A stretch of DNA of 38,035 nt from UHGV virus genome UHGV-0072754. One strand, given 5' to 3'. The translations under genes were made by a program, and so were the position numbers. Positions 909-32,720 of the stretch are shown here, piece by piece (position 1 is the stretch's first letter; every line of letters starts with the position of its first letter). Source of the DNA: a virus. The notes under the pieces were generated by a model, which was not told the origin of the DNA, ran no database searches, and saw only the letters and a program-made list of their open reading frames with translations.

Positions 909-1929
909 GATTCTTTTCCTGCTGCAGTTTGTGTTGCTTAACGAAGTGGGCCACAGCCTTTGACTGGCTAGCGGCAATGGTTTTGTCACCAATGTCCAGC
1001 CAAACGGTTTTTCCGCGATACAGTGAGGCCCGACCAATGTCTTTACCATCGAGCATCACATACAGAGTTCGTCCGCGAATTTCTGTGGTCGGGACTGGCT
1101 GTGACAAGCGATACGTTTCACGCGCTTCAGCAATGGCTTTGTGCTCGTCGATAATTGCCAGTGCTTCCGCCAGCGCCGCACCTTCAAGAGTGAAAACACC
1201 TTCATCACTGATTGCAGCCTGAGCCATAAGCTCAACGAAACGGCGCGCGTTCTTGATGCTCAGTTCGGGGGCGATAGAACTGCGGGTAACTTTCGATTTC
1301 CCTTGGGCAGCAGCGACTGCTTTGTCATGCTGGAGAACTTCACCCGCCTGTTCGCCATACTCGCGGACACGGTCCACAGCAACGTCAACAGATACTGCAC
1401 CGGATTTAACTTCCCTCTGCACGTCATGGTTTGCTGTGCTGAGGAGTAATAACTTCTCGACGGTGGCCACGGATTTATTAACCAGCTTTGCAATTTCGCT
1501 GGTGGTCTGGTTGAAGGCGTTATGCAGCTCCTGAATAACTGCAGCCTGCTCCATATCTGAGAGCGGCAGCTGGTTGTTACTGGTCATGATGCGCGCCAGA
1601 CGCTGAACATCGCTACCGTTGAACGGCATGATGTGGATGCGGTCAACTGGCTTGCCAGCTTCAGCGCAGCGCGCATAGCAGCGACGCCGACGGTGGCCTT
1701 CAACAACCCACACTCCACCTTCATCACGGGCGATAACCTCCAGCGGGGGAACGGAGCCACCGTTCATCAGGTAGTTGAACAAATCATCATCAGCCTGGCG
1801 GGTGCGTTCATCGTCTTCACGCTTGTTGAAACCTTCACGAACGTGGATATCTGAAAGAGCGATAAACATCCCGGTATCGGTGCGCTTAATTACACCGGCC
1901 TTGGTCATTTGCTTGAATGAGTTAGCCAT
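895..1929 (-). CDS. ParB-like nuclease domain protein (ParB/Srx N-terminal domain, 344 aa)
   Basis: N-terminal motif VVEGHRRRRCYARCAEAG typical of the ParB/sulfiredoxin fold (recalled signature, not searched); start overlaps stop of the 1929..2288 gene. Confidence 0.65.
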   Translation of the reverse strand: MANSFKQMTKAGVIKRTDTGMFIALSDIHVREGFNKREDDERTRQADDDLFNYLMNGGSVPPLEVIARDEGGVWVVEGHRRRRCYARCAEAGKPVDRIHIMPFNGSDVQRLARIMTSNNQLPLSDMEQAAVIQELHNAFNQTTSEIAKLVNKSVATVEKLLLLSTANHDVQREVKSGAVSVDVAVDRVREYGEQAGEVLQHDKAVAAAQGKSKVTRSSIAPELSIKNARRFVELMAQAAISDEGVFTLEGAALAEALAIIDEHKAIAEARETYRLSQPVPTTEIRGRTLYVMLDGKDIGRASLYRGKTVWLDIGDKTIAASQSKAVAHFVKQHKLQQEKNHESQ

Positions 1930-2288
1930 TAGAGAACAACCTCGTTATTCAGGGAAATGACGACACTAGGCAGTTCACGGAGTTCTCGCTGAGCTTCCAG
2001 CAGGTGCATGTTGGTAGGCGTTTTTGTGTAGCGCTCTTCGATACGGTCACACTCTTTGGCCCAGCTGGTGACATCCTCACGTAGCGTAGCGTTCTGCTCA
2101 GCCAGTTCCTTCCGCTGCGCCATCGCTTCACACAGCGCGACGCTGGTATAGTCAAGACGGTTAGCCAGTTCGTTAACCATCCAACCATAAGCGGCAGGAA
2201 GGAGAGGGGCGGCCTTGCGAGCTGCGTCAATAAGCTGCTCTCTGGTCATGCGTGGTTGTAACTCGGTGACGTTCTGTGTGTTCGTCAT
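1929..2288 (-). CDS. Hypothetical early protein (119 aa), first gene of leftward operon
   Basis: ATG at 2288-2286 preceded by GGAGAAAC; track ORF extends to 2432 only through a GTG with no SD. Confidence 0.55.
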   Translation of the reverse strand: MTNTQNVTELQPRMTREQLIDAARKAAPLLPAAYGWMVNELANRLDYTSVALCEAMAQRKELAEQNATLREDVTSWAKECDRIEERYTKTPTNMHLLEAQRELRELPSVVISLNNEVVL

Positions 2289-2884
2289 GGTTAGTTTCTC
2301 CGTGTTATAAGCGCTCTGCACAGCGCTGATTTTTGGTTGCACGAATCCCTCGCCTGATAGCGACAAAACATAAAGGGGGTTCGTTTTAGTAAGCACCCAA
2401 CCAGGGCACTTAGTGAAACGGGCGGCTGCCACCGCCAGTTAGCTTCTCCACAATTGGGAGCGCGTTCTCCTGAGTTGATCTAACGACTGAGGCCTCTCAA
2501 GGAACCGGCTGAACGCGCTTTCAGTTGTGAAAAGGGGCGGTCGACATTAAGGACATTCAAAACTGCCGACCGCCAAGACTACACACAGCATCTGGTACAG
2601 CTACGACGGTTTACACAACTGGAAGCGCACTCCGTTCGTTTACTTACCTGTCATCCACAACCGATAGTTGATGGAATGCGCTTTCATGTTATGTGCCGGG
2701 ATTCCACCGGCTCCCATCTGTTTTTTAAGCCACTCAGATATCGTCTGGGCTGTCACCTGATCGCCACGCTGGTGAAACGTCTCTGGCTGTCGTACACAAC
2801 TGGCTTGCACATTCCGGCTGCCCGCTGGATCGGGATACTGCCTAAGGAATCCCCAGACCGCTGCGGCACATGTGCCATATGCCG

Positions 2885-2945
2885 ATGACTAGAAGATAAT
2901 CATTAATTGCGAGTAACGCAAGTATTAAAATGCATATTACGCAAT
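2885..2945 (-). promoter_or_regulatory. Candidate leftward early promoter with operator-like palindromes (OL analogue)
   Basis: TTGCGAGTAACGCAA (2907-2921; perfect 5-bp inverted arms) and TACGCAA half-site at 2936-2942 share the motif of the cI-cro operators; on the minus strand TTGCGT-N17-TATCTT reads as -35/-10. Confidence 0.3.
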
Positions 2946-2953
2946 TTTGTGGA

Positions 2954-2985
2954 CAAAAAAAAACCTCACGTGAGGTCTTTTTTTC
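2954..2985. terminator. Bidirectional intrinsic terminator downstream of repressor gene
   Basis: A9 - perfect 14-bp palindrome ACCTCACGTGAGGT (2963-2976) - T-run. Confidence 0.7.
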
Positions 2986-2997
2986 CTGTAAATCTTG

Positions 2998-3693
2998 CTA
3001 GCCGTGCCGTTTAAAGGATTGCGACTGGCTTATTAAAACCTTTCCATAAATGTAGAATCTATGCTCGTTATCTTTTGTGATACTCCATTCCCGATATTTT
3101 GGATTGTCAGAGATAACAAGAAGCTGGTCAGGAATCATCTGGAGCCGTTTTACGTATATTTTTCCATCAAAACCAAACACATATATACCATCGCCATCAA
3201 ATTCATTTATGTTGACGTCAACAAAAATGAGGTCTCCTGGCTCGATGGTTGACGCCATACTGTCACCACGAACGTTAATAACTTTAACGCCAGAAGATGA
3301 CCTGCCTCCAAACATAGTTAATGCCTGATCATTGCTGTATTCAATAGCATGTATGACATCAATAACATCACTGCTCTGTATGTGTCCTGCTCCGGCGCTT
3401 GCGCTCACATCAAGTACCTCGACTCTATAAACATCACCAATGCTACGTGATGATGAATCACTTTCACTGTTTAAATATACAGTAGCCTCATTTTCTGCCG
3501 AGGTAAATAGGTCAGGGACTTTTACGCTTAAAGCGTGAGCAAGTCGGTTAAGTGTTTGTTCTGAAAACTGCTTTTGCTTGCCTGTTTCCAGGCGGGAAAT
3601 GTTGGCAGCATCAACCCCCACAGTTTCAGCAAGCTCTGCGATTTTCATGTTCTTCGCGAGGCGAAGTTGTCTGATGCGAGATCCTATATTCAT
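2998..3693 (-). CDS. CI-like prophage repressor, HTH N-domain plus S24 LexA-like autopeptidase C-domain (231 aa)
   Basis: HTH (IGSRIRQLRLAKNMKIAELAETVGVDAANISRLETGKQ); S24 motifs VRGDSMASTIEPGDLIFVD and GKIYVKRL (Ser/Lys dyad); AG in linker; start ATG 3693 with almost no SD (leaderless-type, as lambda cI from pRM). Confidence 0.8.
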   Translation of the reverse strand: MNIGSRIRQLRLAKNMKIAELAETVGVDAANISRLETGKQKQFSEQTLNRLAHALSVKVPDLFTSAENEATVYLNSESDSSSRSIGDVYRVEVLDVSASAGAGHIQSSDVIDVIHAIEYSNDQALTMFGGRSSSGVKVINVRGDSMASTIEPGDLIFVDVNINEFDGDGIYVFGFDGKIYVKRLQMIPDQLLVISDNPKYREWSITKDNEHRFYIYGKVLISQSQSFKRHG

Positions 3694-3790: not shown

Positions 3791-4048
3791 ATGCAATCAC
3801 CGTTAAGAAAATTGCGTAAATCGCACGGTATGACCTTGTTGCATGTTGCAACAGGCGTACAGGTCGACCCGGCAACTTTAAGTCGCATTGAAAGATGTGA
3901 ACAGGTTCCATCAGTTGAACTGGCAGAACGTTTAGCCAAGTTCTTCAAAGGCGAGATCAGCGAATTACATATTTTATACCCGAGCCGCTACCAGGTTGCT
4001 GATGACGCATCGGGTAAAGGCAATCGTAATGCGAAAGCAGCCGTCTGA
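3791..4048 (+). CDS. Cro-like HTH regulator (85 aa)
   Basis: AAGGAGG SD then ATG; HTH-like LRKSHGMTLLHVATGVQVDPATLSRIER; divergent from repressor. Confidence 0.65.
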   Translation: MQSPLRKLRKSHGMTLLHVATGVQVDPATLSRIERCEQVPSVELAERLAKFFKGEISELHILYPSRYQVADDASGKGNRNAKAAV

Positions 4049-4070
4049 AAACTACCAAAGGAAAAACAAC

Positions 4071-4541
4071 ATGGTAGAGCCAAGCCTGAAAGAAGTAGTG
4101 AAAGCGATGTGCAAAGCGTACCCCGGAGGCCGTGAGGCTATGGCAGGTGCTCTTGGCATGTCAGTCACGCAGTTCAATAACAATCTGTACGAGAAGAACG
4201 GCTGCCGGTTCTTCGAGGTGAACGAGCTGGAAGCGATGGAGGACATTTCAAACACGTCTTTCCTGGCTGATTACTTCGCGCAACGTCGCGGCGCTCTCCT
4301 GGTGGAAGTTCCGCAACTTGAAGACCTCGATCGCGTTGACCTATTCACCCGTGCAATGAGAACTGCAGCAGCACGCGGTCAGGTTGATCAGATCATTCAG
4401 AAGGCGCTGGAAGATGGAGTGATTGAAGCGCATGAAGCGGAAGAAATTAACGAGTATCACCGCCGTCATCTGGCAGCGCGTGAAGAAGAAATCCGCGCGA
4501 TTGTCGCGCTGTTTAGCCGTAAGCAAAGCCAAAAAAAGTGA
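4071..4541 (+). CDS. cII-position regulatory protein (YdaT-like by position; family not verified)
   Basis: ATG 4071 with AAGGA SD; immediately downstream of cro-like gene; GC-rich hairpin GACGCCCG...CGGGCGTC follows the stop. Confidence 0.45.
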   Translation: MVEPSLKEVVKAMCKAYPGGREAMAGALGMSVTQFNNNLYEKNGCRFFEVNELEAMEDISNTSFLADYFAQRRGALLVEVPQLEDLDRVDLFTRAMRTAAARGQVDQIIQKALEDGVIEAHEAEEINEYHRRHLAAREEEIRAIVALFSRKQSQKK

Positions 4542-4602
4542 CGCCCGCGAGTGTGCAGCTCCGGGCGTCTTGGCGTGTCGTATTCAGTGGAGAAACTAAC
4601 GC

Positions 4603-4941
4603 ATGAACAGTTTAAACCGATTGAGACCAGCGAAGCAATTCAGATGCCTTCCGCTGGTGGGAAAAGATTCCCCGTTCGGCTATGTGGAGAGATTAAACGA
4701 CCAGGCTGATACGAACAACTACCAGCCTGAGAACGCGATGGTAGAGGCTTTTGCTCAGATGAACGAGAAGGGGCGCGAGGAATGGCTGAAGTTAACCGGC
4801 GATTCAAAGACCACTACGGCGTCCCGGTCCGTGTCATCAGATGGGAGCCACAGACCCGACGCGTTATATACCTTCGCGAAGGGTACGATCATGAGTGCTT
4901 CAGCCCTCTTGAGCAATTCCAGCGTAAATTTACAGAGTTAA
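4603..4941 (+). CDS. Hypothetical protein (112 aa); C-terminal half is overlapped by a better-looking ORF in the -1 frame (4782..4994)
   Basis: Strong SD GGAGAAAC before ATG 4603; Ser/Thr-rich low-complexity C-terminus while the overlapping 4782..4994 frame gives a more protein-like sequence (possible frameshift). Confidence 0.35.
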   Translation: MNSLNRLRPAKQFRCLPLVGKDSPFGYVERLNDQADTNNYQPENAMVEAFAQMNEKGREEWLKLTGDSKTTTASRSVSSDGSHRPDALYTFAKGTIMSASALLSNSSVNLQS

Positions 4942-4950
4942 AGGACGACC

Positions 4951-5877
4951 ATGAGCCTGTTGATGCCATCCCGGCCGATAGTGATAAACCCTGACCTTGC
5001 ATACAGCATTGGCCTGAACGAGGCCATTGCGTTGCAGCAGGTTAACTACTGGCTTAAAGAAACCACCTCCGGACTGGAGCGTGACGGCGTGCGCTGGATT
5101 TACAACACCAACGAGCAGTGGCTGGAGCAGTTCCCGTTCTGGTCTGAGTCTACGCTGAAGCGCACATTCACCCGCCTGAAGCAGCTCGGCGTGCTCAAAG
5201 TTGAGCAGCTGAACAAGTCTCAGCGCGACATGACGAACTACTACACGATCAACTACGAAAGCGAGCTTTTAGATGAGCTCAAAGTGACCAAATCGAAGAG
5301 TTCAAAATGCACTCTTCCATCAGGTCAAAATGAACCGATGGAAGAGGTCAAAGTGGAACGCTCCATCGGTTCAAAACGAACCGCTCTCATCAGGTCAAAT
5401 TGCACTGATGTTCTTACAGAGAATACAACAGAGAATACTACAGATATTAAAAACCCTATTTGTCCGGTTGCGCCGCAACCAGACGGTGATGTGTTGATCA
5501 CCGATCAGGCTAAACAGGTTTTAACCCATCTGAACCAGGTGACCAGTTCGCGTTATCAGGTTTCAACAACCTCGCTGCAAAATATTCGTGCCCGAATCGG
5601 GGAGGGCTACACCGTTGAAGAATTGTCGCTGGTGGTGGACTACTGCAACGCCAAGTGGAGCGAAGACCTGACGATGGCGACCTACCTTCGACCACAGACG
5701 CTTTTCCAGCCGTCCAAGTTCCCTGGCTACCTGAAGTCAGCGAACAGTTGGGCCAAAGCTGGGCGACCTCCTCGCGTAAACGGAGAGTGGGCCCGAGAGG
5801 ATGGGGTTTTCCGCTCCAGTTTCCAGAACACTGACTACAGCAAAGTCCCGGCAGGCTTCAGAGGAGCGAACTCATGA
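4951..5877 (+). CDS. Replication initiator, lambda O-like (308 aa)
   Basis: AAGGA SD; position after the cII-like gene; iteron array lies inside the linker-coding region as in lambda O; conserved-looking C-terminal domain. Confidence 0.7.
   Translation: MSLLMPSRPIVINPDLAYSIGLNEAIALQQVNYWLKETTSGLERDGVRWIYNTNEQWLEQFPFWSESTLKRTFTRLKQLGVLKVEQLNKSQRDMTNYYTINYESELLDELKVTKSKSSKCTLPSGQNEPMEEVKVERSIGSKRTALIRSNCTDVLTENTTENTTDIKNPICPVAPQPDGDVLITDQAKQVLTHLNQVTSSRYQVSTTSLQNIRARIGEGYTVEELSLVVDYCNAKWSEDLTMATYLRPQTLFQPSKFPGYLKSANSWAKAGRPPRVNGEWAREDGVFRSSFQNTDYSKVPAGFRGANS
5297..5462. repeat. Candidate replication origin: 4-5 iterons plus adjacent AT-rich segment inside the O-like gene
   Basis: Repeats of ~GGT(T)CAAAAYGMAC with inverted symmetry (CATCAGGTCAAAATGAACCGATG 5319-5341, GGTTCAAAACGAACC 5368-5382, CATCAGGTCAAATTGCACTGATG 5388-5410) followed by cagagaatacaacagagaatactacagatattaaaaa. 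Confidence 0.55.
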
Positions 5878-6368
5878 GCCTTCTGAAAGATATTCAAATT
5901 TTCATCGCTGAAAACCCTGGGTTAACTAACAAACAGATCGCAGCATCAATGCCTCAATACCGACTTCATGCTGTTCAGCGCGGTGTATGCCATCTGGTCA
6001 AATTGAATCGCGCAACACGGCAGCATAACGGTAAGTGCTACCAGTATTTTGCCAAAGCGCCGGGAGGTGACGTTAGCGAGGGGCGTTCTGCACTGAAAAT
6101 TAACCGGGCAGATACACCAGCTGTATCGGAACAGGAAGAAGCGCCGAATCCAGCTGTAACCAGGATGATGGATAAGGCTAAAGGCCTGTTTGAAAAAGGG
6201 CTCTACCAGCGTGCGGCCACAGTTTTGATGGATGCCTTCAATCGCTCAAAAGACGAAGAGCAGCGAATGAAGATACTCATTGAGCGCCAGCGTTGTCTGC
6301 GCATGTCCCCGAAAGTTAAAGCGCCAACTGATGCATGGTGTCTGGCAGGTCAGGGGAGGAATATCTAA
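5874..6368 (+). CDS. Hypothetical replication-module protein in the lambda P position (164 aa)
   Basis: ATGA overlap with the O-like gene; no helicase-loader motif recognised. Confidence 0.4.
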   Translation: MSLLKDIQIFIAENPGLTNKQIAASMPQYRLHAVQRGVCHLVKLNRATRQHNGKCYQYFAKAPGGDVSEGRSALKINRADTPAVSEQEEAPNPAVTRMMDKAKGLFEKGLYQRAATVLMDAFNRSKDEEQRMKILIERQRCLRMSPKVKAPTDAWCLAGQGRNI

Positions 6369-7027
6369 TGAAATACTCTCTGATTTACGCAGACCCAGCC
6401 TGGGAATACGGCAACACCGTCAGCAACGGCGCGGCTACTAATCACTACGGCACAATGAAGCTGGTCGACATGAAGCGTCTTCCGGTCTGGGACCTTGCTG
6501 CTGACGATGCTGTTTTGGCTATGTGGTTCACCGGCACGCATACCCGCGAAGCGATTGAACTGGCTGAAGCATGGGGCTTTAAGGTCCGCACTATGAAGGG
6601 ATTCACCTGGGTGAAGCTCAACCAGCTCGCAGAGCAGCACATCAACAAAGCACTTCAGGCTGGTGGAGTAGAGGACTTTTACGACTTCCTCGACCTGCTT
6701 AACGAGCAGACCCGCATGAACGGCGGAAACTACACCCGAGCCAATACAGAAGACCTGCTTATAGCCACCAGGGGGAATGGACTTGAACGCCAGTGCGCGA
6801 GCATCAAGCAGGTTATCTACAGCCCACTGGGCAAGCACAGCCAGAAGCCAGCAGAGGCGCGCTTCCGCCTGGAGAAGCTTTACGGTGACGTTCCGCGCAT
6901 CGAACTCTTCAGCCGCTGCGGTGCACCAGGATGGCACCACTGGGGTAATCAGAGTGAGTCCGCTGCAGTTGAGTTGATTCCTGGCGTTGCTGTTCCGGTG
7001 GCAGATAACCGGGAGCATGCAGCATGA
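6368..7027 (+). CDS. MT-A70 family DNA N6-adenine methyltransferase (219 aa)
   Basis: IYADPAWEY (DPPW-type catalytic motif) near the N-terminus, HSQKP later; GGAGG SD; TAATG overlap with upstream gene. Confidence 0.75.
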   Translation: MKYSLIYADPAWEYGNTVSNGAATNHYGTMKLVDMKRLPVWDLAADDAVLAMWFTGTHTREAIELAEAWGFKVRTMKGFTWVKLNQLAEQHINKALQAGGVEDFYDFLDLLNEQTRMNGGNYTRANTEDLLIATRGNGLERQCASIKQVIYSPLGKHSQKPAEARFRLEKLYGDVPRIELFSRCGAPGWHHWGNQSESAAVELIPGVAVPVADNREHAA

Positions 7028-7251
7028 AGAAGCTATCAACCGAGCAGGAGAACGCGGTTCGTGACGTTGCCCGTCAATGCTCCGATGCCATTAAGAAAGC
7101 CTTGAAGAAAAAGCCGAAGCCAAGCTGGAACGTCGTTGTACCTCCGATCCTGAAGGAGTACCACGAGAAGGTAAAACCGATGGGCGTAAGTCTGGTGATG
7201 TTCAACAGCGTAATCGGACGCCTGAACGGGCGCTATGGAGTGGAGTCATGA
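7024..7251 (+). CDS. Hypothetical small protein (75 aa)
   Basis: ATGA-coupled between the methylase and RusA genes. Confidence 0.5.
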   Translation: MKKLSTEQENAVRDVARQCSDAIKKALKKKPKPSWNVVVPPILKEYHEKVKPMGVSLVMFNSVIGRLNGRYGVES

Positions 7252-7658
7252 TGAAACTGGTTCTCCCGTTCCCACCGAGCGTAAACACCTACTGGCGAGC
7301 CCCCAATAAGGGGCCGTTGGCAGGACGCCATCTCATCAGTGCTGCTGGCCGCAAATATCAGAGCGCTGCTTGCGCTGCGATTATTGAACAATTACGCCGC
7401 CTGCCTAAACCAACCACAGCGCCAGCGGCGGTTGAGATCATTCTCTATCCACCAGATGCCCGCCGCCGCGATATCGACAATTACAACAAGGCGCTTTTTG
7501 ATGCACTGACACATGCAGGCATCTGGGAGGATGACAGTCAGGTTAAACGAATGCTGGTGGAGTGGGCACCGCAGGTACCTGGCGGGAAGGTTGAAATAAC
7601 GATCGCCAGCTATGTCGAAAATGGTAGGCAAAATAGCAATGCATTGGTACGCGCATGA
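7248..7658 (+). CDS. rusA: RusA-family Holliday junction resolvase
   Basis: PPSVNTYW ... DIDNYNKALFDALTHAGIWEDDSQV, characteristic RusA motifs; nin-region position. Confidence 0.85.
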   Translation: MMKLVLPFPPSVNTYWRAPNKGPLAGRHLISAAGRKYQSAACAAIIEQLRRLPKPTTAPAAVEIILYPPDARRRDIDNYNKALFDALTHAGIWEDDSQVKRMLVEWAPQVPGGKVEITIASYVENGRQNSNALVRA

Positions 7659-7728
7659 GTGTTAGATTAAAAAGTGTCAGCGAAGCGGGAGTGCAGACCC
7701 GCTCGCACTACAACAAGTGGAGAAACAT

Positions 7729-8523
7729 ATGAATCAGTTATTCGTAATTGATGGCGTTTCCGTACGCCGTGATTTTGATGGTCGTTACTGCCTGAATGAT
7801 TTGCATCGTGCGGCGGGAGGTGAAAAACGTCACCAGCCTTCCAACTGGTCCTGTCTTACCCAAACGCAAGAACTCATCGCTGAAATTTCGAGCGCTCCTG
7901 GAATTACAGGAGCGGCCCCGTTGGTCACCCTTACTGGTGGTGTTAACCAGGGGACATTCGTCTGCAAGGAGTTGGTTTATTCCTATGCAATGTGGATCAG
8001 CCCGAAATTTAACCTCAAAGTCATCAGAACGTTCGATGCCGTACAGAACCCTGCATCCAATGCGCCGACATCCGACAAAATTCAGGCTGGCGTGATCCTG
8101 CTTGAATCGGCGGCGAAAATGCTGAACCTCTCAAACTCTTCAAGGCTCGGTGCTTATCAAAAACTCCAGCAGGTAGCTGGTCTTCCAGATCTGATGCCGC
8201 ATTACGCGATCGATGCACCTGCCGGTGCGCAGGATGGGTCCAGCCGTCCCACACAATCACTCAGCGCTCTGCTTAAAGCAAAAAACATCCGCATCACCGC
8301 CAATCAGGTTTATCACATGATGTCCCGCTTTGGGATTGTGGAACAAAAAGAGCGAAACAGTCGGTCTGGAGTGAATGGTGTTAAAAAGTTCTGGTCACTT
8401 ACTGCCAAAGGCTGCATGTATGGCAAGAACATCACCAGTCCTGCGAACCCGCGAGAAACTCAGCCTCATTTCTTTGAGTCGAAGTTTGCGGAGCTTCTTA
8501 AAATAATCGACATCGTAGCCTGA
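7729..8523 (+). CDS. KilA-N domain protein with antirepressor-like C-terminal region (264 aa)
   Basis: N-terminal KilA-N signature (VRRDFDGRYCLNDLHRAAGG ... GTFVCKELVYSYAMWISPKF); GGAG SD before ATG 7729 (track start 7717 is GTG); hairpin GCGGG...CCCGC upstream. Confidence 0.75.
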   Translation: MNQLFVIDGVSVRRDFDGRYCLNDLHRAAGGEKRHQPSNWSCLTQTQELIAEISSAPGITGAAPLVTLTGGVNQGTFVCKELVYSYAMWISPKFNLKVIRTFDAVQNPASNAPTSDKIQAGVILLESAAKMLNLSNSSRLGAYQKLQQVAGLPDLMPHYAIDAPAGAQDGSSRPTQSLSALLKAKNIRITANQVYHMMSRFGIVEQKERNSRSGVNGVKKFWSLTAKGCMYGKNITSPANPRETQPHFFESKFAELLKIIDIVA

Positions 8524-8530
8524 GGTAACA

Positions 8531-9520
8531 GTGAGAGCATTACTGACACCTGAAGTTGCACCAATGTCCGGGGTGGTACTGTTTCGCCCCGGAAACGAAC
8601 TGCTGTGGTTGTTTCGCCGTGGCAGGGTGGTGATTGAAACGCCTTCCGAAGCAATCAAGCACCTGCCATCTGGACTGATTCCTGAAGCCCACCAGCCACT
8701 GACAGATGATGTCAGTGTGCAGGAGCTTTTCCTGAATGAGAGAGTTATTCAGCGTGCTGGTGGACTGAGTGGCCTTGATGCCTGGCTGGAACGTAAATTC
8801 GAATGTCAGTGGCCGCACAACGAATGGCACTCAAAGGACTTTACACTTCTACGCCACGCCCCCGGCAGCATTCGCCTGTGCTGGGGATGTGATAACCAAC
8901 TGCGTGAACAAACTACAGAAAGACTGGCAGGAATTGCCATGCAGAACCTGGTAAAATGGCTGCTCGAAAGGGTGAATATCATGCTGGGTTTCAGCGCTGA
9001 CCACACCCTGACGCTGCCGGAGTTTTGCTGGTGGATGATACGTAACGATCTGGCTGACCTGATTCCTGAATCAGTGGCTAGCCAGGCGCTCCGGATTAAG
9101 CCTGAATCGCACAGTTCAGTGATGCGTGAAAGCGACATTGTTCCGTCATTACCAGCAACTGAAATCCTCCAGGAGAAAGTTAAGAAGATAGTCTCGGTGA
9201 AGGTCGATCCTGAATCACCTGAATCTTTCATGCTGAGGCCAAAGCGCCGTCGCTGGGAGAACGACAAGTACACCCGCTGGGTGAAGTCGCAGCAGTGCAG
9301 TTGCTGCAATAACCCGGCAGACGACCCCCATCACCTGATTGGCCACGGGCAAGGTGGAATGGGTACCAAAGCGCATGACCTGTTTGTGATACCGCTGTGC
9401 AGAGCGCATCACGATGAGTTACACGCTGATCCTGTGGCATTTGAAGCGAAGCACGGCGACCAGTTAACGCTGTTGTTTCGGTTTTTAGATCGTGCGCTGG
9501 CAATCGGCGCACTGGCGTAA
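8531..9520 (+). CDS. DUF968-like nin-region protein with C-terminal Cys/His (HNH-like) motif (329 aa)
   Basis: GTG start with GAGG SD; C-terminus CSCCNNPADDPHHLIGHG...CRAHHDELH; recalled resemblance to DUF968 prophage proteins. Confidence 0.55.
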   Translation: MRALLTPEVAPMSGVVLFRPGNELLWLFRRGRVVIETPSEAIKHLPSGLIPEAHQPLTDDVSVQELFLNERVIQRAGGLSGLDAWLERKFECQWPHNEWHSKDFTLLRHAPGSIRLCWGCDNQLREQTTERLAGIAMQNLVKWLLERVNIMLGFSADHTLTLPEFCWWMIRNDLADLIPESVASQALRIKPESHSSVMRESDIVPSLPATEILQEKVKKIVSVKVDPESPESFMLRPKRRRWENDKYTRWVKSQQCSCCNNPADDPHHLIGHGQGGMGTKAHDLFVIPLCRAHHDELHADPVAFEAKHGDQLTLLFRFLDRALAIGALA

Positions 9521-9533
9521 GTGGAGACGCAGC

Positions 9534-10112
9534 ATGATCAATCCTTCAGAAGTTGGCAAATCGGGCGAGATGGTTCGCCTTCGCACTCTCGAAAGTATCT
9601 GGGTACAGGGTAAGCTCCGTATGTGGGGCCGCTGGTCTTATATCGGTGGTGGCTCTGGCGGAAACATGTTCAACCAGCTGCTGGCATCGGGGAAAATCAC
9701 CAAGACCGCTATCAACGATGCGCTGCGCCGCATGAAGAAATCCGGTATCACCAAACCCGAGCTGGAAGCGTACCTGCAAGAAATTCTCGACAGTAAAAAC
9801 AAAACTGGCCTGACGTTCTGCTCGGACGAAGAGGGGCTTAAGATTGACGGCGTTATTGCGGCAGTGCTGATGAACGAAGAATACCGTGGGCTGTATAGTG
9901 TGATTGTTGATCGTCATCGTCTGCGTAAAAGCAAACTCCAGATGGCTAAAGAGCTTAATTCAAAACACCCCGACTGGACCCTTATTACATGCCGTCGTCG
10001 TATTGATACATGGGTAAGTCTTGCAGAATCGATCATTTACGCACCACTTTGTGACGCGTTTGGCACAAATAGCGACAGATTTAAGTTGCATAGTGAGCAA
10101 GAAAGTGCTTAA
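9534..10112 (+). CDS. Late-gene antitermination protein Q
   Basis: GGAG SD before ATG 9534; motif LRMWGRWSYIGGG recalled from the phage antiterminator Q family; upstream of a terminator-rich leader and the lysis cassette. Confidence 0.7.
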   Translation: MINPSEVGKSGEMVRLRTLESIWVQGKLRMWGRWSYIGGGSGGNMFNQLLASGKITKTAINDALRRMKKSGITKPELEAYLQEILDSKNKTGLTFCSDEEGLKIDGVIAAVLMNEEYRGLYSVIVDRHRLRKSKLQMAKELNSKHPDWTLITCRRRIDTWVSLAESIIYAPLCDAFGTNSDRFKLHSEQESA

Positions 10113-10114
10113 AT
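10086..10114 (+). promoter_or_regulatory. Candidate late promoter (pR'-like) overlapping the Q stop
   Basis: TTGCAT-N17-TTAAAT; alternative weaker candidate TTGACC-N17-GTAACT at 10261-10289. Confidence 0.3.
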
Positions 10115-10164
10115 TGTGGTAGGCTCGGGACAGTAAAGCGTACTGAGCAACAAATCAAAACATA

Positions 10165-10195
10165 AACCCGCCACTGCTGCGGGTTTTTTATTTTA
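10165..10195 (+). terminator. Intrinsic terminator in late leader
   Basis: CCCGC-cactgct-GCGGG followed by TTTTTTATTTT. Confidence 0.65.
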
Positions 10196-10435
10196 AGGGC
10201 TGCCTCCGGGTGGCCTTTTTTGTTTCCCCTCGTTCTGAGAGGACTCATGGCGATGATGTATTGACCGCTAGAATGGATTAGTCGTAACTTATTATTGTGG
10301 TGAATCCTTTCTAAGCGAAAGGGCGTTCCAGTCAACTGCTATCTGCAGGTATGCGCGCGGCTTTGCTGACTTGGGTAGAGTCACCGGGAGGCACCCGGCA
10401 CCATGACAATAACAATACAGTTTCAAATTCCTTGA

Positions 10436-10467
10436 GAGCCTGCCGTAAAAAGCAGGCCTTTTTTTAT
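10436..10467 (+). terminator. Intrinsic terminator in late leader
   Basis: GCCTGC-cgtaaaaa-GCAGGC followed by CTTTTTTTAT. Confidence 0.65.
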
Positions 10468-10618
10468 GAATTTGCAAACTGCTGCTACGCTTGAAATGTG
10501 TGTTGAAGGTAATTGCCTGATGGTTCTCCTGAACCGTTGTGAACCAGCCCGATACTGTCTCACTCAGGTCAGTTAGCAAGACTCACGACTACCTACCTTA
10601 CTTACTAATAGTCACTCA

Positions 10619-10650
10619 TTAGCCCGCCTTCAAAAGCGGGCTTTTTTTAT
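10619..10650 (+). terminator. Intrinsic terminator 45 bp upstream of the holin gene
   Basis: AGCCCGC-cttcaaa-GCGGGCT followed by TTTTTTTAT. Confidence 0.65.
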
Positions 10651-10695
10651 TCCCCTCATCACTGAGAGGATTCACGGCAATAAGAGGGGGACTAG

Positions 10696-11091
10696 ATGTC
10701 CGATCCTGTTTCTGGCACGACAGTAGCGGCTGGTGGTCTGATGGGGGCCAGCATGTTCGGCCTGGCAACAGGCATAGACTACGGTGTGGTGTTTGGCGCA
10801 TTCGCTGGTGCCGTGTTCTACGTCGCTACGGCAGTTAATATCAGCCGCCTTAAGCTGGTGGGCTACTTCATCACCTCATTCATCTTCGGCGTTATCGGCG
10901 CTCCACTGCTTGGCTCTTACTTCTCCAAATGGACGGGGTATAGCGACAGGCCACTCGATGCGCTGGGCGCGGTAATCGTAGCCGCTATTGCTATTAAGCT
11001 GCTGACGTTCGTAAACAGTCAGGATTTGGGTAGCCTGTTTGGAATTCTCTCGCGTTTACGTGGTGGAGGGGCCAGCAATGGTAACAAGTGA
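10696..11091 (+). CDS. Holin-like membrane protein (131 aa)
   Basis: Several hydrophobic helices, Gly/Ala-rich; first gene of lysis cassette. Confidence 0.55.
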   Translation: MSDPVSGTTVAAGGLMGASMFGLATGIDYGVVFGAFAGAVFYVATAVNISRLKLVGYFITSFIFGVIGAPLLGSYFSKWTGYSDRPLDALGAVIVAAIAIKLLTFVNSQDLGSLFGILSRLRGGGASNGNK

Positions 11092-27900: not shown

Positions 27901-28414
27901 TAACGCGATGATCGTCAATTCGCTGCAGTCTTCTATGGGCGGTGGTGGATTCCTGGGCGGATTGTTTGGCGGCTCTGCTGGTGGATCAACACCGTCAGGT
28001 TCTTACAACTCTGCGGCATCAGGTCTTCAGCTCAACGCTAAGGGGGGCGCTTACGCTTCCGCCAGCCTCAGTGCTTACAGTAACAGCATTGTCAGATCAC
28101 CGACATACTTTGCTTTTGCGAAAGGCGCTGGGCTGATGGGGGAGGCAGGCCCGGAAGCCATCATGCCGCTAACGCGATCTGCAGATGGTTCACTTGGCGT
28201 TCGGGTAACAGGAGCTCAAATGGCCCCAGGAGGCGGCGGAGAAATCCATATCACCCAGCATATCAATGTTTCTGGTAACGGTGACGCCGCGCTTAATCGT
28301 GCCATGCAGGAGGCCGCGCGTCAGGGAGCTGCCGATGGTGCTAAAAAAGCGCGTCAGGACATGCTGAGTGATTTTCAGACCAACGGTCAGGCCAGGAGGA
28401 TGCTTGGCGTTTAA
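24932..28414 (+). CDS. Tail tape measure protein (1160 aa)
   Basis: Very long, Ala/Gln-rich coiled-coil protein with Gly-rich C-terminal region; canonical position. Confidence 0.9.
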   Translation: MATLRELIIKISANSQSFQTEISRASRMGQDYYRTMQNGGRQAAAAARESERALSDLTNGFASAGRAAAAATAAFATGKLVQIADEWNSVNARLKQASSSADDFAASQRQLMEISQRTGTAFSDNANLFSRAAASMREYGYSSDEVLKITEAVSTGLKLSGANTQEASSVITQFSQALAQGVLRGEEFNAVNEAGDRVIRALAAGMGVARKDLKSMADQGQLTIDKVVPALMSQLGALQGEFASMPQTVSGSLQKVTNSFMAWVGGVNQATGATDALSGGLDGIAQTLDSFTSSAVSGALSEVADNMSTITTVAGALVGVGLAKYLSGVVTSATSATGALISAAKSEVALAVAQDKAAQSAVAASRAEVYRAQQAVQSSRSADVQAAQQEKVAAAEAKVTAAHTRLTTALASGTATEKVRARTALERAQAGLVAAKNADAQAVAERRLAAAQAALNRNISNRVSTQSNLNSVTSVGTRLMSGALGLIGGVPGLVMLGAGAWYAMYQNQEQARRSAQEYASQIDEIREKTSRMSLSETDDNRGRTVGALVEQNRLINEQAKKVGELKTQIDDLNASRGKPGINSENDANILRAIAIVTDQLAVEEGKLNDMRDKSRGIQQALEEIERRRNDLIREQAWRQNAVYQSMIMMNGQHTEFNRLLGLGNQLLMARQGLANVPLRLPQADLDKKQTDALEKSRRDLELSRLKGEAKERLRLSYAADDLGLTSEPQFQTARQELINNGLMEWKNNETNKPRAKGGKTEGEKTEDVYKRLIKQQKEQIALQGQNTELAKLKYQVSQGELATLTASQKQTLLQNAALIDQQKIREQLAAYEANLADANASSRASNQAELTGYGQGSRTRERMQEMLRIREEFQQKNVDLQRQYQSGDISEELYRQELALNKRYLDERLRDQAGFYAASDAQRSDWAAGMREGFANWVDTASDYASQSADLVNNTMSGLVGNISEALAGNKVDWEDWSKSVLASMQKIILNAMIVNSLQSSMGGGGFLGGLFGGSAGGSTPSGSYNSAASGLQLNAKGGAYASASLSAYSNSIVRSPTYFAFAKGAGLMGEAGPEAIMPLTRSADGSLGVRVTGAQMAPGGGGEIHITQHINVSGNGDAALNRAMQEAARQGAADGAKKARQDMLSDFQTNGQARRMLGV

Positions 28415-28421
28415 ATAAGGA

Positions 28422-29021
28422 GTGACTATGTCTGTGCTTGAATGGCCTGAAGATGTATGTCCGGCGTCGCTGACGTGGCGGCCGGAAAGTAACACAAAAA
28501 CATTTCGTTCCCCGTTTAATGGTGCATCACAGACCGTCCGTTTCCCCGGTACCCGCTGGATCTGTTCCCTGACGTTTAGCAACCTTACAGATGATAAATC
28601 CCGGCGCATTGATGCGCTGGTGGCCGATCTGGATGGTGAATATGGCAGGGTGAAGATCCGGGACTGGGGGAGGATAGGCAGGACGCCAGCCGGAAACCCG
28701 GTGGTTTCTGACGCGAACCAGACCGGTACGCAGCTCGGAAGTAAGGGCTGGACACCCGGCACACTGGTACTGCGCACCGGTGATTACTTTACCGTTAATG
28801 ACGAGCTGAAGATGGTCACCGCTGATGTGACCAGCACTGCTGCAGGAACTGCCGTTATTCCTTTTGCGCCTATGCTGCGCGCCTCTCCCCCGGCTAACGG
28901 AAAAATCGAAGTCGCTAAGCCATACGGCATTTTCAAGCTGAAGGATAACCAGCAGGGGGCAGGTAACCGCGTGCCGGGCATTTTTACCAGCTACACGCTG
29001 GAGTTTGAGGAGGCTTTCTGA
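28422..29021 (+). CDS. Minor tail protein (gpM-like region)
   Basis: First gene after tape measure; weak recalled resemblance to lambda M. Confidence 0.55.
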   Translation: MTMSVLEWPEDVCPASLTWRPESNTKTFRSPFNGASQTVRFPGTRWICSLTFSNLTDDKSRRIDALVADLDGEYGRVKIRDWGRIGRTPAGNPVVSDANQTGTQLGSKGWTPGTLVLRTGDYFTVNDELKMVTADVTSTAAGTAVIPFAPMLRASPPANGKIEVAKPYGIFKLKDNQQGAGNRVPGIFTSYTLEFEEAF

Positions 29022-29605
29022 TGCTGTATTCACCGTTTTCTGATTCGATGGTGGACTGGCTATCCCGCGACAGGGTTACCGCCGTGCTGGCGGCCAATGT
29101 CCAGTTTGAGTCCGGTACCGCCTACGTGCATTCCGGTACCGGCACGCTGGTGCTGGGTGGTTATGTCTATTACGGCATGGGGACAATGGGCGCCATCGAC
29201 GATGTAGGCGAAACCAACACAACAAGCCCGACGCAGCTCAGGATGACGCTATCCGGGCTGGATATGTCGCTGTTTGCCAAAACGCTCAATGAGCGCTGTG
29301 TGGGAAGGCCTGCAGAGCTGTATCTGGTGGCTATGGATGATAACGGCGTCGTTCAGGTGGCCGACCTTATTTTTAAGGGGCGGGTTTCCGGCACCGGGGC
29401 AACGGCGGGTGAAACGAATGCCCTGCAGTACACCGTCAGTAATATTTTTGAGGACTGGCAGCGACCGTTCCCGGACCGCTATTCCGACGAGTCACACCAG
29501 GCCACCCAGCCAGGCGACCGCATATTTCGTTACGTCGCGCAGATGGCAGAACGTTCAATTTACTGGGGCAGCAAAAAAGATGCGCCAGGGTTTACCTATT
29601 CGTGA
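29021..29605 (+). CDS. Minor tail / tip protein
   Basis: ATGA-coupled; position. Confidence 0.55.
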   Translation: MLYSPFSDSMVDWLSRDRVTAVLAANVQFESGTAYVHSGTGTLVLGGYVYYGMGTMGAIDDVGETNTTSPTQLRMTLSGLDMSLFAKTLNERCVGRPAELYLVAMDDNGVVQVADLIFKGRVSGTGATAGETNALQYTVSNIFEDWQRPFPDRYSDESHQATQPGDRIFRYVAQMAERSIYWGSKKDAPGFTYS

Positions 29606-30010: not shown

Positions 30011-32718
30011 TGCCTGCTGCAATCCCTATCATCGCGACGGTAGCCGCTGGCGCCGCGGCGGCCAATGGAGCCTACGCTATCGCAATGGCAATCACCATTG
30101 CCGCTCAGGTCGCCACACAGATGATGACGAAAAAGCCATCACTGGGGTCTTACCGCGACACTGCAGAACGGAAGCAGGTGCTGCGCGCGGCTGCCAGCCC
30201 TAAAACGGTTGTTTATGGCAGGACCGTATCTGCAGGCACTCTGTTTTTCGCTGAAGAACAGCCTGGCGAGCAGACTGATGGCGAATGGGTTCACCTTGCC
30301 ATTACCCTGGCGGGACACCCAATATCAGGCACGGGCACCATTTACCTGGGCGATGATGATATTGGCTCGTATGGCGAGAACGCCACGTATGAAGTGCATA
30401 TCGACCGCCAGACAGCAGACCCGTTTATGCTGGAAAATTGCCCGTCGTGGAAAGATGACATGATCGGCAAGGGGATTTCCTGGCTTCGTCTGTCACTGAA
30501 ATACAATGCTGAGAAATTCCCGTCCGGCATCCCGAACGTGAAGGTTGAGAAGACGGGCAGGAAAGTATACGACCCGCGCACAGGCCGCACGGAGTACAGC
30601 AACAATCTGGCGCTGTGCGTGCTCGACTATTACCGGAGTTACCTGAAAGTCGCTGATGCTGATATTAACTGGGATCAGTTTCAGGAGGCGGCCAACATCT
30701 GCGACGAGCTGGTGACTAACGGCGACGGCACGACGGAAAAACGTTACACGCTTAACGGGGAATTTGACCTTAGCGAAAATAAGGCGAGCATTCTTGAGGC
30801 GATGCTGACAGCTGGTGCAGCGGAGCCAACCTACATCGCCGGTAAACATGGCATCCTCGTTGGCGCGTATTACGGCCCCGCAACCGAAATTATCACCGAG
30901 AGTCAGCTGGCCGGCGATATCGAGATCATGCCTGAGGTGTCACAGTCAGAGCGCGTTAACACCATCAGCGGTACGTTTGTCGATCCTAAACAGACCTACT
31001 CTGAAGCCGATTTTCCCTCAGTATCTGTCAGCGAGTGGGTAACCGAAGACGGCGTGGAGATATCGCAGGATCTTAAGCTGCGTTTCGTTACGTCTGAATT
31101 TCAGGCTCAGCGTCTGTCGGACATCAAGCTCAAGCGGACCCGCATTTCCCGCACAATGAATCTCACACTTAACCTGAGCGGGTATCGTTACCGTCCAGGT
31201 ATGTACGTAAAAGTTAATTTCCCTTCTCTTGGGATCGTTAACGTTGAGATGCGCGTGACAGACTGGAAATTTGGCGTGCAGAACGGCGTGCAAATTACAC
31301 TGAAGCAGGAAACTGCTGACGTGTGGGGTGATGCCATCGGTAAGCCCATAGATCGCCCCGATTTTACCAATCTCCCGCTGGGTGGGGTGGCGCAGCCTCA
31401 GAATCTGAAGTACACCGTGGAGGAAATAGGTCAGGTGGTGCAGGGCGTTCTCTCATGGCAGAACATCGGGCAGTTTGTCTATAACCAGGTTGTCATTCGC
31501 AGGAATGGCCACCCGGTGCTCACAGCACAGGTTCCCGGCTCGTTCACGCGATTAACTGGCCTGCTGCAGGATACTTACACAGCCCACGTCACCGCCGTTA
31601 ATCAGATGGGGGCAGCTTCGCCAGAGGCATATCTTGAATTCAGCATTGAGGCACCGCCTCCGCCGTCAGGTGTCACTGTAGAGCAGGCATTTTTTGCCGT
31701 GATGCTTATTCCCCGCCTCGCAGCCGTGACAAACGTCTCCACCCAGTTCGATTTCTGGACGTCAGGTGAGCAGCAGCTTGCCAATACAGATACGGCGACC
31801 GTGGAGGCCGAAGCCACGCGCGCGGGTATTGGCACGACGTGGACAAGCCACAACCTGAAAAATGGACATACCTATTACTGGTATATCAGAACCATCAACG
31901 CGTTTGGTGCGTCTGCCTTCGTCGAGGTGGCCGCGCTGTGCCAGACCGAAACCGGTGAACTCATCGACATTATTGATGATGCCGTGCGTGACTCTGATGC
32001 TTTCAAAAATGTTTCTGAAGGCGTGGACACCAACCTCGAAGCAGCCATGCAGAATTCCCTGGCAAATCACGGAACGGTTGAACACCAGTATCAGCAGTAC
32101 GGGGAGGTGCGCGCTGATATCCTGGTTGTTAAAACAACGGTCGCAGAAGTGGATAAAGGCCTTGCAGACCTGTCTACCTATGTGCAGGCCCAGGTAGGGG
32201 ATTTGACCGCCGCTGTTAACCAGAAATTGACGGCAGAAGTAAACAGTGATGGAACGGGAAAGGCGTCCTATACGCTCAACCTTGGGATAGTCAGAAGTGG
32301 GGTGAAGTACAACACTGGTTTCGGGATGTCTATTGAGCCATCTGGCGGGTCTTACAAATCCACAGTGGTCTTTGCTGCTGACCAGTTTGGTATCTACTCG
32401 GGAAGCGATCCGGGAAATTACCAGGCTGCTTTTTTTGTCTATAACGGCCAGGTGTTCATCCGTGATGCCTTTATCCAGGACGGCAGCATTACTAACGCGA
32501 AGATTGGTAATTACATCCGCTCATCAAACTATGTGGCAGGTCCTGGTGGTGCCGGGTGGAATATTGATAAGGGCGGGAATTGTGAGCTGCACGGCGCGCT
32601 GTATGCCGCCAGCGGTAATTTTGCGTTCACCGGGAATGGCAATGGCGTCACCATTGACGGAAGGGGCGTAAGAATTGATCTCGGTGGCGGGAACCTGATT
32701 GTTCTTGGAGAGTGGTAA
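30010..32718 (+). CDS. Host specificity / central tail fibre protein, lambda J-like (902 aa)
   Basis: Recalled similarity to lambda J C-proximal region (HVTAVNQMGAASPEAYLEFSIEAPPPPS; VSTQFDFWTSGEQQ; GHTYYWYIRTINAFGASAFVEVAA); hydrophobic Gly/Ala-rich N-terminus. Confidence 0.8.
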   Translation: MPAAIPIIATVAAGAAAANGAYAIAMAITIAAQVATQMMTKKPSLGSYRDTAERKQVLRAAASPKTVVYGRTVSAGTLFFAEEQPGEQTDGEWVHLAITLAGHPISGTGTIYLGDDDIGSYGENATYEVHIDRQTADPFMLENCPSWKDDMIGKGISWLRLSLKYNAEKFPSGIPNVKVEKTGRKVYDPRTGRTEYSNNLALCVLDYYRSYLKVADADINWDQFQEAANICDELVTNGDGTTEKRYTLNGEFDLSENKASILEAMLTAGAAEPTYIAGKHGILVGAYYGPATEIITESQLAGDIEIMPEVSQSERVNTISGTFVDPKQTYSEADFPSVSVSEWVTEDGVEISQDLKLRFVTSEFQAQRLSDIKLKRTRISRTMNLTLNLSGYRYRPGMYVKVNFPSLGIVNVEMRVTDWKFGVQNGVQITLKQETADVWGDAIGKPIDRPDFTNLPLGGVAQPQNLKYTVEEIGQVVQGVLSWQNIGQFVYNQVVIRRNGHPVLTAQVPGSFTRLTGLLQDTYTAHVTAVNQMGAASPEAYLEFSIEAPPPPSGVTVEQAFFAVMLIPRLAAVTNVSTQFDFWTSGEQQLANTDTATVEAEATRAGIGTTWTSHNLKNGHTYYWYIRTINAFGASAFVEVAALCQTETGELIDIIDDAVRDSDAFKNVSEGVDTNLEAAMQNSLANHGTVEHQYQQYGEVRADILVVKTTVAEVDKGLADLSTYVQAQVGDLTAAVNQKLTAEVNSDGTGKASYTLNLGIVRSGVKYNTGFGMSIEPSGGSYKSTVVFAADQFGIYSGSDPGNYQAAFFVYNGQVFIRDAFIQDGSITNAKIGNYIRSSNYVAGPGGAGWNIDKGGNCELHGALYAASGNFAFTGNGNGVTIDGRGVRIDLGGGNLIVLGEW

Positions 32719-32720
32719 CA

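Follow-up and report, generated by a model that had tools for sequence, protein, structure and literature searches.

A KilA-N gene in the nin region of a lambdoid prophage: a candidate lytic-phase regulator with a shuffling C-terminal module and a conserved leader hairpin

What role does a KilA-N protein play when its gene lies in the nin region of a lambdoid prophage? The question is raised by UHGV virus genome UHGV-0072754, a 38,035-nucleotide stretch of DNA analysed here in full (the window), in which an open reading frame (ORF) on the plus strand, ending at position 8523, encodes such a protein within the rightward early operon. The original prediction, made from the letters of the DNA, had offered two candidate roles, that of an antirepressor and that of a BstA-like abortive-infection protein. 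We find that the protein is not a BstA relative, that its C-terminal half is an independent shuffling module, and that its gene follows a conserved and covarying leader hairpin. By analogy with proteins of the Ant/Roi/Rha/Bro class, the gene may encode a modular regulator of the lytic phase, a reading to which we give a probability of about one half. The answer matters beyond this genome, as the family is among the commonest uncharacterised families of enterobacterial prophages and has members in serotype-converting phages of Shigella as well as in the Stx2a and Stx2c toxin phages. The KilA-N gene sits just upstream of the DUF968 gene and the gene for the Q antiterminator, which switches on the late genes, including the toxin genes in Stx phages.

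A KilA-N domain joined to a shuffling C-terminal module

The ORF has two candidate starts, GTG 7717 and ATG 7729. We place the start at ATG 7729 because the homologues in our alignment all begin MNQL, MSQL, or MNSL and because the sequence GGAG lies at 7720-7723; the product is then 264 residues long, as originally predicted. The predicted N-terminal KilA-N domain is also borne out, with a match of Pfam PF04383 to residues 5-106 (profile positions 3-105 of 107) at E = 3e-23 and 82.1 bits (gathering cutoff 23.8). The 264-residue protein matches nothing else in Pfam or NCBIfam. Over its full length it matches phrog_129 (E = 4.9e-107, residues 1-257 on profile positions 2-267 of 273), and full-length tblastn matches are found in 75 phage records. 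Full-length identities of 62-72% link it to SfV orf44 (NP_599076), to proteins of SfII, SfIV, and mEp460, to cdtI orf50 and ST64B sb46, and to many genes of Stx2a and Stx2c phages, such as Stx2a_WGPS2 gp23; the value is ~65% for SfV, SfII, SfIV, cdtI, and Stx2a/Stx2c phage genes. Full-length relatives also occur in prophages of Atlantibacter, Citrobacter, Buttiauxella, Kluyvera, Phytobacter, Pantoea, Kosakonia, Leclercia, Enterobacter, Rosenbergiella, and Erwinia. Every one of the 3275 homologues in the protein collection is named merely "KilA-N domain-containing protein," and no near-identical DNA is present in the phage and E. coli collections. The two-domain build and the place between RusA and DUF968-Q are those of the phrog_129 proteins of lambdoid phages, and the gene is an ordinary member of this very common, functionally uncharacterised family. 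The label "transcriptional regulator" that databases attach to phrog_129 proteins is an annotation only.

Where the protein differs from those of most of the listed phrog_129 phages is in a variable cassette inside the KilA-N domain. Comparison with one homologue (P0012) gives identities of 100% over residues 1-28, 29% over residues 29-70, 78% over residues 71-110, and 93% over residues 111-264. The same pattern holds in most homologues, in which residues 29-70 are only 26-40% identical and the flanks are 65-100% identical. The cassette is also mosaic, being swapped among proteins that are otherwise 80-100% identical. In the AlphaFold2 model of the full-length protein, block-mean pLDDT is 59 over residues 1-10 and lies between 73 and 89 over residues 11-100. 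The pattern of identities suggests that the cassette is a candidate determinant of specificity and that the C-terminal module may supply a constant function.

This C-terminal module (C-module, residues ~111-264), better conserved than the KilA-N domain, is modeled with confidence by AlphaFold2 (pLDDT 91.7). It comprises a helical hairpin, a loop of invariant sequence (GLPDLMPxYAIDAP...DGSSRPT), a unit resembling a winged helix, and a beta-hairpin with the motif GKNxTSPxNPRETQP. As the sole query, it retrieves 825 clusters at E ≤ 0.001. Its N-terminal partners in 51 diverse proteins include Rha (17), KilA-N (7), Bro-N (7), ORF6N (5), AntA (2), and P22_AR_N (1), and further contexts are provided by JBD68, APSE-2, Medea1, and SopranoGao. 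The C-terminal half is thus an independent, previously undescribed shuffling module. Iyer, Koonin, and Aravind reportedly described, in 2002, a network of modular phage regulators in which KilA-N, Bro-N, Rha, ORF6N, and AntA domains are shuffled; the C-module has recombined with several of these N-domains and so belongs to that network. When only the last 115 residues served as the query of another word-index protein search, the matches were largely gene fragments and contributed little.

The original prediction had likened this half of the protein to the C-domains of antirepressors. We do not find that likeness in the sequence or in the fold. No Pfam family matches residues ~111-264 at E ≤ 1, and ANT, P22_AR_C, and ORF6C match none of the 51 diverse C-module proteins at E ≤ 0.001; as a control, Roi of phage HK022 matches Pfam ANT at 9.7e-33. 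A relation of the C-module to ANT was rejected after a comparison by hhalign with Roi-type ANT proteins, which aligned the N-terminal Rha regions only. Fold searches with the C-module model gave nothing significant, and a PDB sequence search with the family profile returned only noise. What remains of the claim is a likeness at the level of architecture: because the C-module is fused to the same set of N-domains, it acts like an antirepressor C-domain in its architecture.

Such an architecture would fit a classical antirepressor, which would inactivate the CI repressor of its own or a co-resident prophage and so create positive feedback on induction or cross-induction. The AntA and P22_AR_N domains that precede some C-modules also form the N-terminal parts of the antirepressors of P1 and P22, and there are proteins with this module that depositors have named antirepressors. 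The best BFVD fold matches, which are nonsignificant, include entries named "antirepressor protein" (E = 0.05, TM 0.34), and the nin-region Ant of phage Phi24B enhances induction (PMC3064807). However, the window protein is without sequence or significant fold similarity to characterised repressor-binding domains, and its C-module is 70-90% conserved across phages of many genera when the C-modules alone are compared. The variable part, moreover, sits in the DNA-binding-type KilA-N domain, and the window repressor, of the S24 type, can cleave itself. The proposal of an antirepressor thus keeps its support from the modular build and from the slot typical of Ant/Roi-type regulators but lacks a detectable C-domain in common with characterised antirepressors, and we consider it unlikely, if worth keeping in view.

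A host-directed function of the "kil" type, in which the protein would disturb the growth or division of the host in the course of lytic development, is also conceivable. P1 KilA and Gp07 of a staphylococcal phage are host-directed proteins, and the KilA-N domain takes its name from the host-killing KilA. The delayed-early position of the gene would suit such a role, and the conserved C-module could have as its target a host protein conserved throughout Enterobacterales. The C-domain is unlike KilA-C/ANT, however, and a hypervariable cassette suits phage-specific recognition better than host-specific recognition. We therefore think a function of this kind very improbable.

The nin-region slot and its neighbors

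The predicted nin-region location is correct. The rightward operon runs in the order cro, CII-like, replication, PerC-like, MT-A70 methylase, small ORF, RusA, KilA-N, DUF968/HNH, and Q-like (Table 1), with the KilA-N gene between the replication genes and the Q-like gene and ~4 kb away from cI. The part from the methylase to Q recurs in the same order in SfV, in the Stx2a phage WGPS2, and in metagenomic relatives. A consensus scan of 6900-10700 found no plus-strand promoter-like sites (sigma-70 consensus only) and no terminator-like site in the gap between RusA and KilA-N, and it found clear terminators only after the Q-like gene. Because no promoter or terminator was found, the gene is most likely expressed only when the rightward operon is transcribed and not in the lysogen.

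Our favored explanation is that the KilA-N gene encodes a lytic-phase modular regulator. We infer this role from architecture, position, and analogy, not from homology to a tested protein. The protein would be produced after induction or infection, along with transcription of the rightward early operon. Its KilA-N domain is predicted to bind DNA, with the swapped 42-residue cassette probably setting target specificity, and the conserved C-module of ~150 residues probably contacts a conserved partner or supports oligomerisation. In lytic development, it would then act as a site-specific DNA-binding regulator or as an enhancer of lytic commitment, like HK022 Roi and Phi24B Ant, and not as an abortive-infection protein expressed in the lysogen. 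The leader hairpin, with UGCAG in its loop, probably couples expression of the gene to a regulator common to other early genes. Either the shuffling C-module or the recurrent hairpin, with its invariant loop and covarying stems, could bear on the timing of prophage induction.

The analogy draws on the genes that occupy comparable positions in other phages. The roi gene of HK022, whose product combines Rha and ANT, is a nin-region gene as well; it has the replication genes on one side and Q on the other and stands immediately before rusA. Phage Eeyore has a Roi-like Rha/ANT gene that takes the slot of the KilA-N gene directly before DUF968 and carries the same TGCAG hairpin, the same Shine-Dalgarno (SD) sequence, and the same first four codons, MNQL; its protein and the window protein have unrelated sequences. 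In mEp390, RusA is followed directly by DUF968, 94.5% identical to that of the window, and the slot is empty. As the slot is empty in one phage and holds a Roi-like gene in another, we regard it as an exchangeable position for Ant/Roi-type genes. Its left border is RusA or the methylase and its right border is DUF968, and the leader and first four codons that the loci share contain the recombination joint (mEp390 31583-32958; Eeyore 1764-3562).

HK022 Roi and the Roi-like protein of Eeyore resemble the window protein in their nin position, in the joining of a DNA-binding-type N-domain to a C-module, and in length (240-265 residues). They differ from it in that neither domain is similar in sequence; Roi matches Pfam ANT and Rha, whereas the window protein matches neither. 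The gene order also differs, with roi preceding rusA and the KilA-N gene following RusA, and no TGCAG hairpin is present in the 12.7-kb HK022 stretch 28000-40751 that contains roi. The Stx phage Phi24B encodes, ahead of Roi and Q, a nin-region Ant that hastens activation of the late promoter upon induction (PMC3430580, PMC3064807), and deletion of ant leaves 27-31% of wild-type pR' activity (PMC3064807). For P22, Ant binds the repressor, according to work cited in PMC3064807. The Ant proteins of P22, P1, and Phi24B share with the window protein a domain-shuffling network, as the window C-module is found behind P22_AR_N and AntA, and Phi24B Ant shares the status of a nin-region gene that acts, or in the case of the window gene would act, at induction. 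Their N- and C-domains are different from those of the window protein.

Several points weigh against a lytic-phase regulator. No similarity between the C-module and ANT, P22_AR_C, or a solved structure could be detected, and, for that reason, the analogy to Roi and Ant is one of architecture and position only. The DNA binding of the KilA-N domain and the partner of the C-module are predictions, and our literature searches yielded no functional study of any member of the phrog_129-type family. The window repressor is a LexA-like S24 protein that cleaves itself, so induction does not strictly need an antirepressor. As for expression, the promoter scan was limited to sigma-70 consensus sites, and the consensus scan also returned a weak terminator-like site at 7751-7770, inside the 5' end of the KilA-N gene itself. 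This site, on the plus strand and within the first 15 codons, is a hairpin with a T-rich tail (ATGGCGTTTCCGTACGCCGT GATTTTGATG) and may be due to chance or may be an attenuator.

The second role originally proposed, BstA-like defence, would have the protein made in the lysogen, where it would sense the DNA replication of a foreign phage and abort the infection, with the hairpin region as the cis immunity element. There is some outward likeness, as BstA is also prophage-encoded, is of similar size (307 residues), and has two domains with a KilA-N-like N-terminus (PMC8585504). In addition, the sole PADLOC match of the window protein is to a defence candidate, PDC-S22 (9.9e-6), but this weak match is confined to residues 65-107 of the KilA-N core. 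No homology to BstA is detectable: the PADLOC BstA model gives no match at E ≤ 1, BLASTP against BstA gives E = 1, and the remote-homology comparison that had been suggested as a check gives a probability of 2.3% by hhalign with the family profile. The positive control, BstA of the Salmonella prophage BTP1 (28115-29035, minus strand), scores 1.9e-124 on the same PADLOC model. BstA itself misses the Pfam KilA-N model that the window protein matches strongly.

The locus is also unlike that of bstA, a gene that comes immediately after cI, carries a terminator of its own, and is strongly expressed in lysogeny (PMC8585504); the window gene is in the nin operon. The immunity element of BstA, aba, is a 63-bp DNA element that spans the start codon and has terminal CCCGCC direct repeats (PMC8585504). 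No such terminal repeat is present in 7640-7820. An ungapped comparison of aba with the entire window gives at best 31 of 63 matching positions, and at a place other than the KilA-N start. The hairpin does not serve as a self-immunity element for the KilA-N protein either, since mEp390 has the hairpins but lacks the protein; it is a leader element common to unrelated genes. We conclude that the KilA-N protein is not a BstA relative and that BstA-like defence is a far-fetched explanation of this gene, and its exclusion removes a tempting misannotation.

A different kind of partnership is suggested by the downstream gene, whose DUF968 (Orf-like plus HNH) product the KilA-N protein could direct to particular DNA or restrain, the two genes forming a recombination or nuclease module beside RusA. 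The KilA-N stop codon is 7 nt from the DUF968 start, and 68 of 77 distinct homologous loci have the DUF968 coding motif P-L-C-R-x-H-H, with its HNH signature, 3' of the KilA-N gene. The pairing is kept in the distant phage Pm34, two conserved TGCAG hairpins bracket the gene pair, and a single-strand-specific nuclease activity has been suggested for DUF968 (PMC4118853). However, DUF968 is found without a KilA-N gene in mEp390, Tritos, and PPompW and behind the Roi-like gene in Eeyore, and the C-module is found in the other contexts named above. A dedicated nuclease partner therefore seems to us quite unlikely, and a lytic-phase regulator remains our preferred reading of the gene.

Leader hairpins with an invariant loop

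The GC hairpin that had been noted upstream of the gene is conserved, and its stems covary. It lies at 7680-7706, within the gap of 7659-7728 between the RusA stop codon and the KilA-N start, 21 nt from the former and 22 nt upstream of the latter. It reads GCGAAGCGGG-AGTGCAGA-CCCGCTCGC and is preceded by an A-run at 7669-7673. The leader folds at -20.8 kcal/mol and is more stable than its shuffles (z = -2.78, 1/200). The sequence that follows, ACTACAACAAG, has no U-run, which rules the hairpin out as a terminator of sense-strand transcription; it is likewise absent from the list returned by the terminator scan.

A hairpin with an NTGCAG loop precedes the gene in 49 of 60 distinct upstream sequences from IMG/VR, with stems that include AGCGGG/CCCGCT, GGGA/TCCC, GGGC/GCCC, CGGGG/CCCCG, GGCGG/CCGCC, CAGCGT/ACGCTG, and TCAC/GTGA, among others; some lineages have two such hairpins. 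Across 29 distinct hairpins, chosen for TGCAG in the loop, 77.6% of the cells are paired, compared with 48.2% in shuffles (0/500). All six stem pairs show double changes, and sliding the partner columns lowers pairing to at most 54%. As an independent check, 16 of 16 full-length relatives in independent genomes, from different genera and with further stem variants, have a loop that contains TGCAG. The strand bias of the mismatched cells (20 G-T/T-G vs 6 A-C/C-A) favors folding of the sense strand. Overall, the leader hairpins with a UGCAG loop, newly recognised here, are a conserved and covarying cis element of the RNA type. Rfam 15 has no match in 7560-7800 at E ≤ 10, and our literature searches found no functional study of a TGCAG-loop hairpin.

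The end of a sar-like antisense RNA at 7680-7706 was considered and is not supported. On the opposite strand the T-run is 7 nt from the stem, no minus-strand promoter was found nearby, and the wobble bias points to the sense strand. The two sister copies at 4540-4569 and 2310-2327 do resemble a hairpin followed by a T-run on the opposite strand.

These sister hairpins stand before unrelated early genes. The first lies between the CII-like gene and the ORF at 4603-4941 and is followed by GGAGAAAC (in the region 4589-4598) and then by ATG 4603; it is also present in SfV (1200) and in mEp390 (29918). The second, on the minus strand, lies 21 nt upstream of ATG 2288, is followed by GGAGAAAC (in the region 2300-2291), and is identical in mEp390 (27076, minus strand). 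The SD motif of the KilA-N gene shares the GGAGAAAC core with both. The leaders thus have a common layout of an A-rich flank, hairpin, GGAGAAAC, and ATG, with the hairpins 21-33 nt upstream of start codons and an SD of the GGAGAAAC type. Copies in SfV are at 1200, 4969, and 6685.

Another copy lies within the coding sequence of DUF968, across its HNH motif. Of 20 distinct 21-mers from DUF968 genes, 16 carry TGC-AGR, each with three to four of the four stem positions paired, whereas in the four with TGT-CGN only zero to two of the four positions pair. Changes at synonymous positions in the Pro and Leu codons go together with changes in the residue that follows Arg. As the rare AGR codon is used whenever the flanks can pair, structure is under selection in DUF968 in addition to coding. 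A third stable TGCAG hairpin, GCAGCAG-TGCAG-TTGCTGC at 9289-9307 on the plus strand (-15.2 kcal/mol), spans the zinc finger of DUF968 at its first Cys cluster; only a few relatives have it, and mEp390 has a weaker form.

In the complete genome of mEp390, copies precede xis (22929, minus strand), gp035 (27076, minus strand), and gp041 (29918), and another lies in DUF968 (32836); this genome contains no KilA-N protein or C-module homologue. The KilA-N protein was rejected as the reader of the hairpins on this ground. Also rejected was the idea that the hairpin accompanies the C-module in distant phages, as JBD68, APSE-2, SopranoGao, and Medea1 are without it. TGCAG hairpins are not enriched across the window (4 observed vs 3.25 expected in shuffles, for stems of at least 5), so the signal is one of positional conservation and not of density. 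A covariance model built from the hairpins was too poor in information to be of use, scoring known copies at E = 0.94 or 5.7 or missing them, and direct hairpin scans performed better.

What might read these sites? The boxB-type nut hairpins of lambda, P22, and mEp021 likewise combine short covarying stems with an invariant loop, and the window copies are nut-like in lying on the sense strand of both early operons, with one deep in the right operon. A precedent exists in mEp021, which has three nut sites, with nutR2 deep in the right operon (PMC11893012). The window hairpins differ in having an NUGCAG loop in place of the A-rich GAAAA or GACAA and in having one copy inside a coding motif. Neither a boxA nor an arginine-rich N-like protein was recognised among the early ORFs, which were inspected by eye and not searched systematically, and the STnc100-like late leader RNA described below has no complementary CUGCAC loop. 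The distance of 21-33 nt from the start codons fits translational control as well as it fits nut. We tentatively suggest, with little confidence, that the hairpins are sites of an undescribed post-transcriptional system, either nut-like antitermination with a new loop code or a phage-wide translational operator that times some of the early genes, in a large group of lambdoid phages to which the SfV-like and Stx2-converting phages belong. Genes of the KilA-N/Roi slot would be among its targets, with the KilA-N protein as a lytic-commitment regulator of a new type.

Feature coordinates and other observations in the window

Table 1. Coordinates, strands, and supporting evidence for the features of the window discussed in the text.
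Feature	Position	Strand	Evidence or remark
Leader hairpin before KilA-N gene, GCGA-(A)-GCGGG / A-GTGCAG-A / CCCGC-TCGC	7680..7706	+	TGCAG at 7692-7696
SD sequence GGAG, within motif GTGGAGAAAC	7720..7723	+	Kept in homologous leaders
KilA-N protein coding sequence, phrog_129	7729..8523	+	264 residues; ORF list, Pfam, and PHROG match
KilA-N domain, residues 5-106, predicted DNA-binding module	7741..8046	+	Pfam PF04383
Hypervariable cassette, residues 29-70 (42 residues)	7813..7938	+	Homologue comparison
Conserved C-terminal module, residues 111-264 (~150 residues)	8059..8520	+	Without Pfam family
Sister leader hairpin, GACGCCCG-C-GAG / TGTGCAG / CTC-CGGGCGTC	4540..4569	+	-19.7 kcal/mol
Sister leader hairpin, AGCGCT-GTGCAG-AGCGCT, leftward early operon	2310..2327	-	Hairpin scans
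TGCAG-loop hairpin within DUF968 HNH motif (P-L-C-R-A-H-H); core CGCT-GTGCAG-AGCG at 9393-9406	9384..9414	+	Hairpin scans
RusA Holliday-junction resolvase gene, upstream neighbor	7248..7658	+	Pfam RusA 1.1e-16
DUF968/HNH nuclease gene, downstream neighbor	8531..9520	+	Pfam DUF968 2e-80; phrog_96 1.7e-153
Q-like gene	9534..10112	+	Downstream of DUF968; followed by terminators and lysis genes
LexA-like S24 self-cleaving repressor (cI)	2998..3690	-	S24 domain
cro-like ORF	3791..4048	+	
CII-like gene	3996..4541	+	
ORF of phrog_1170, otherwise unassigned	4603..4941	+	
Replication gene	4951..5877	+	
MT-A70 methylase	6335..7027	+	Followed by small ORF, then RusA

Three further features of the window deserve mention. 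Just 3' of the Q-like gene, at 10268-10469 on the plus strand, is a match to the Rfam STnc100 small RNA (58.4 bits, E = 3.8e-10), the only match in the window at gathering score. It lies among three terminator-like hairpins (10164-10218, 10438-10457, and 10621-10642) and is probably a leader RNA of the late promoter. In the leftward early operon, 895-1929 on the minus strand encodes a ParB-like protein (phrog_1033, 5.5e-87). Finally, the early-operon ORF at 5874-6368 on the plus strand has a transcriptional-activator domain of the PerC family whose score coincides with the Pfam threshold (22.6 bits, E = 1.3e-4); in pathogenic E. coli, virulence genes are under the control of PerC/Pch-like regulators.

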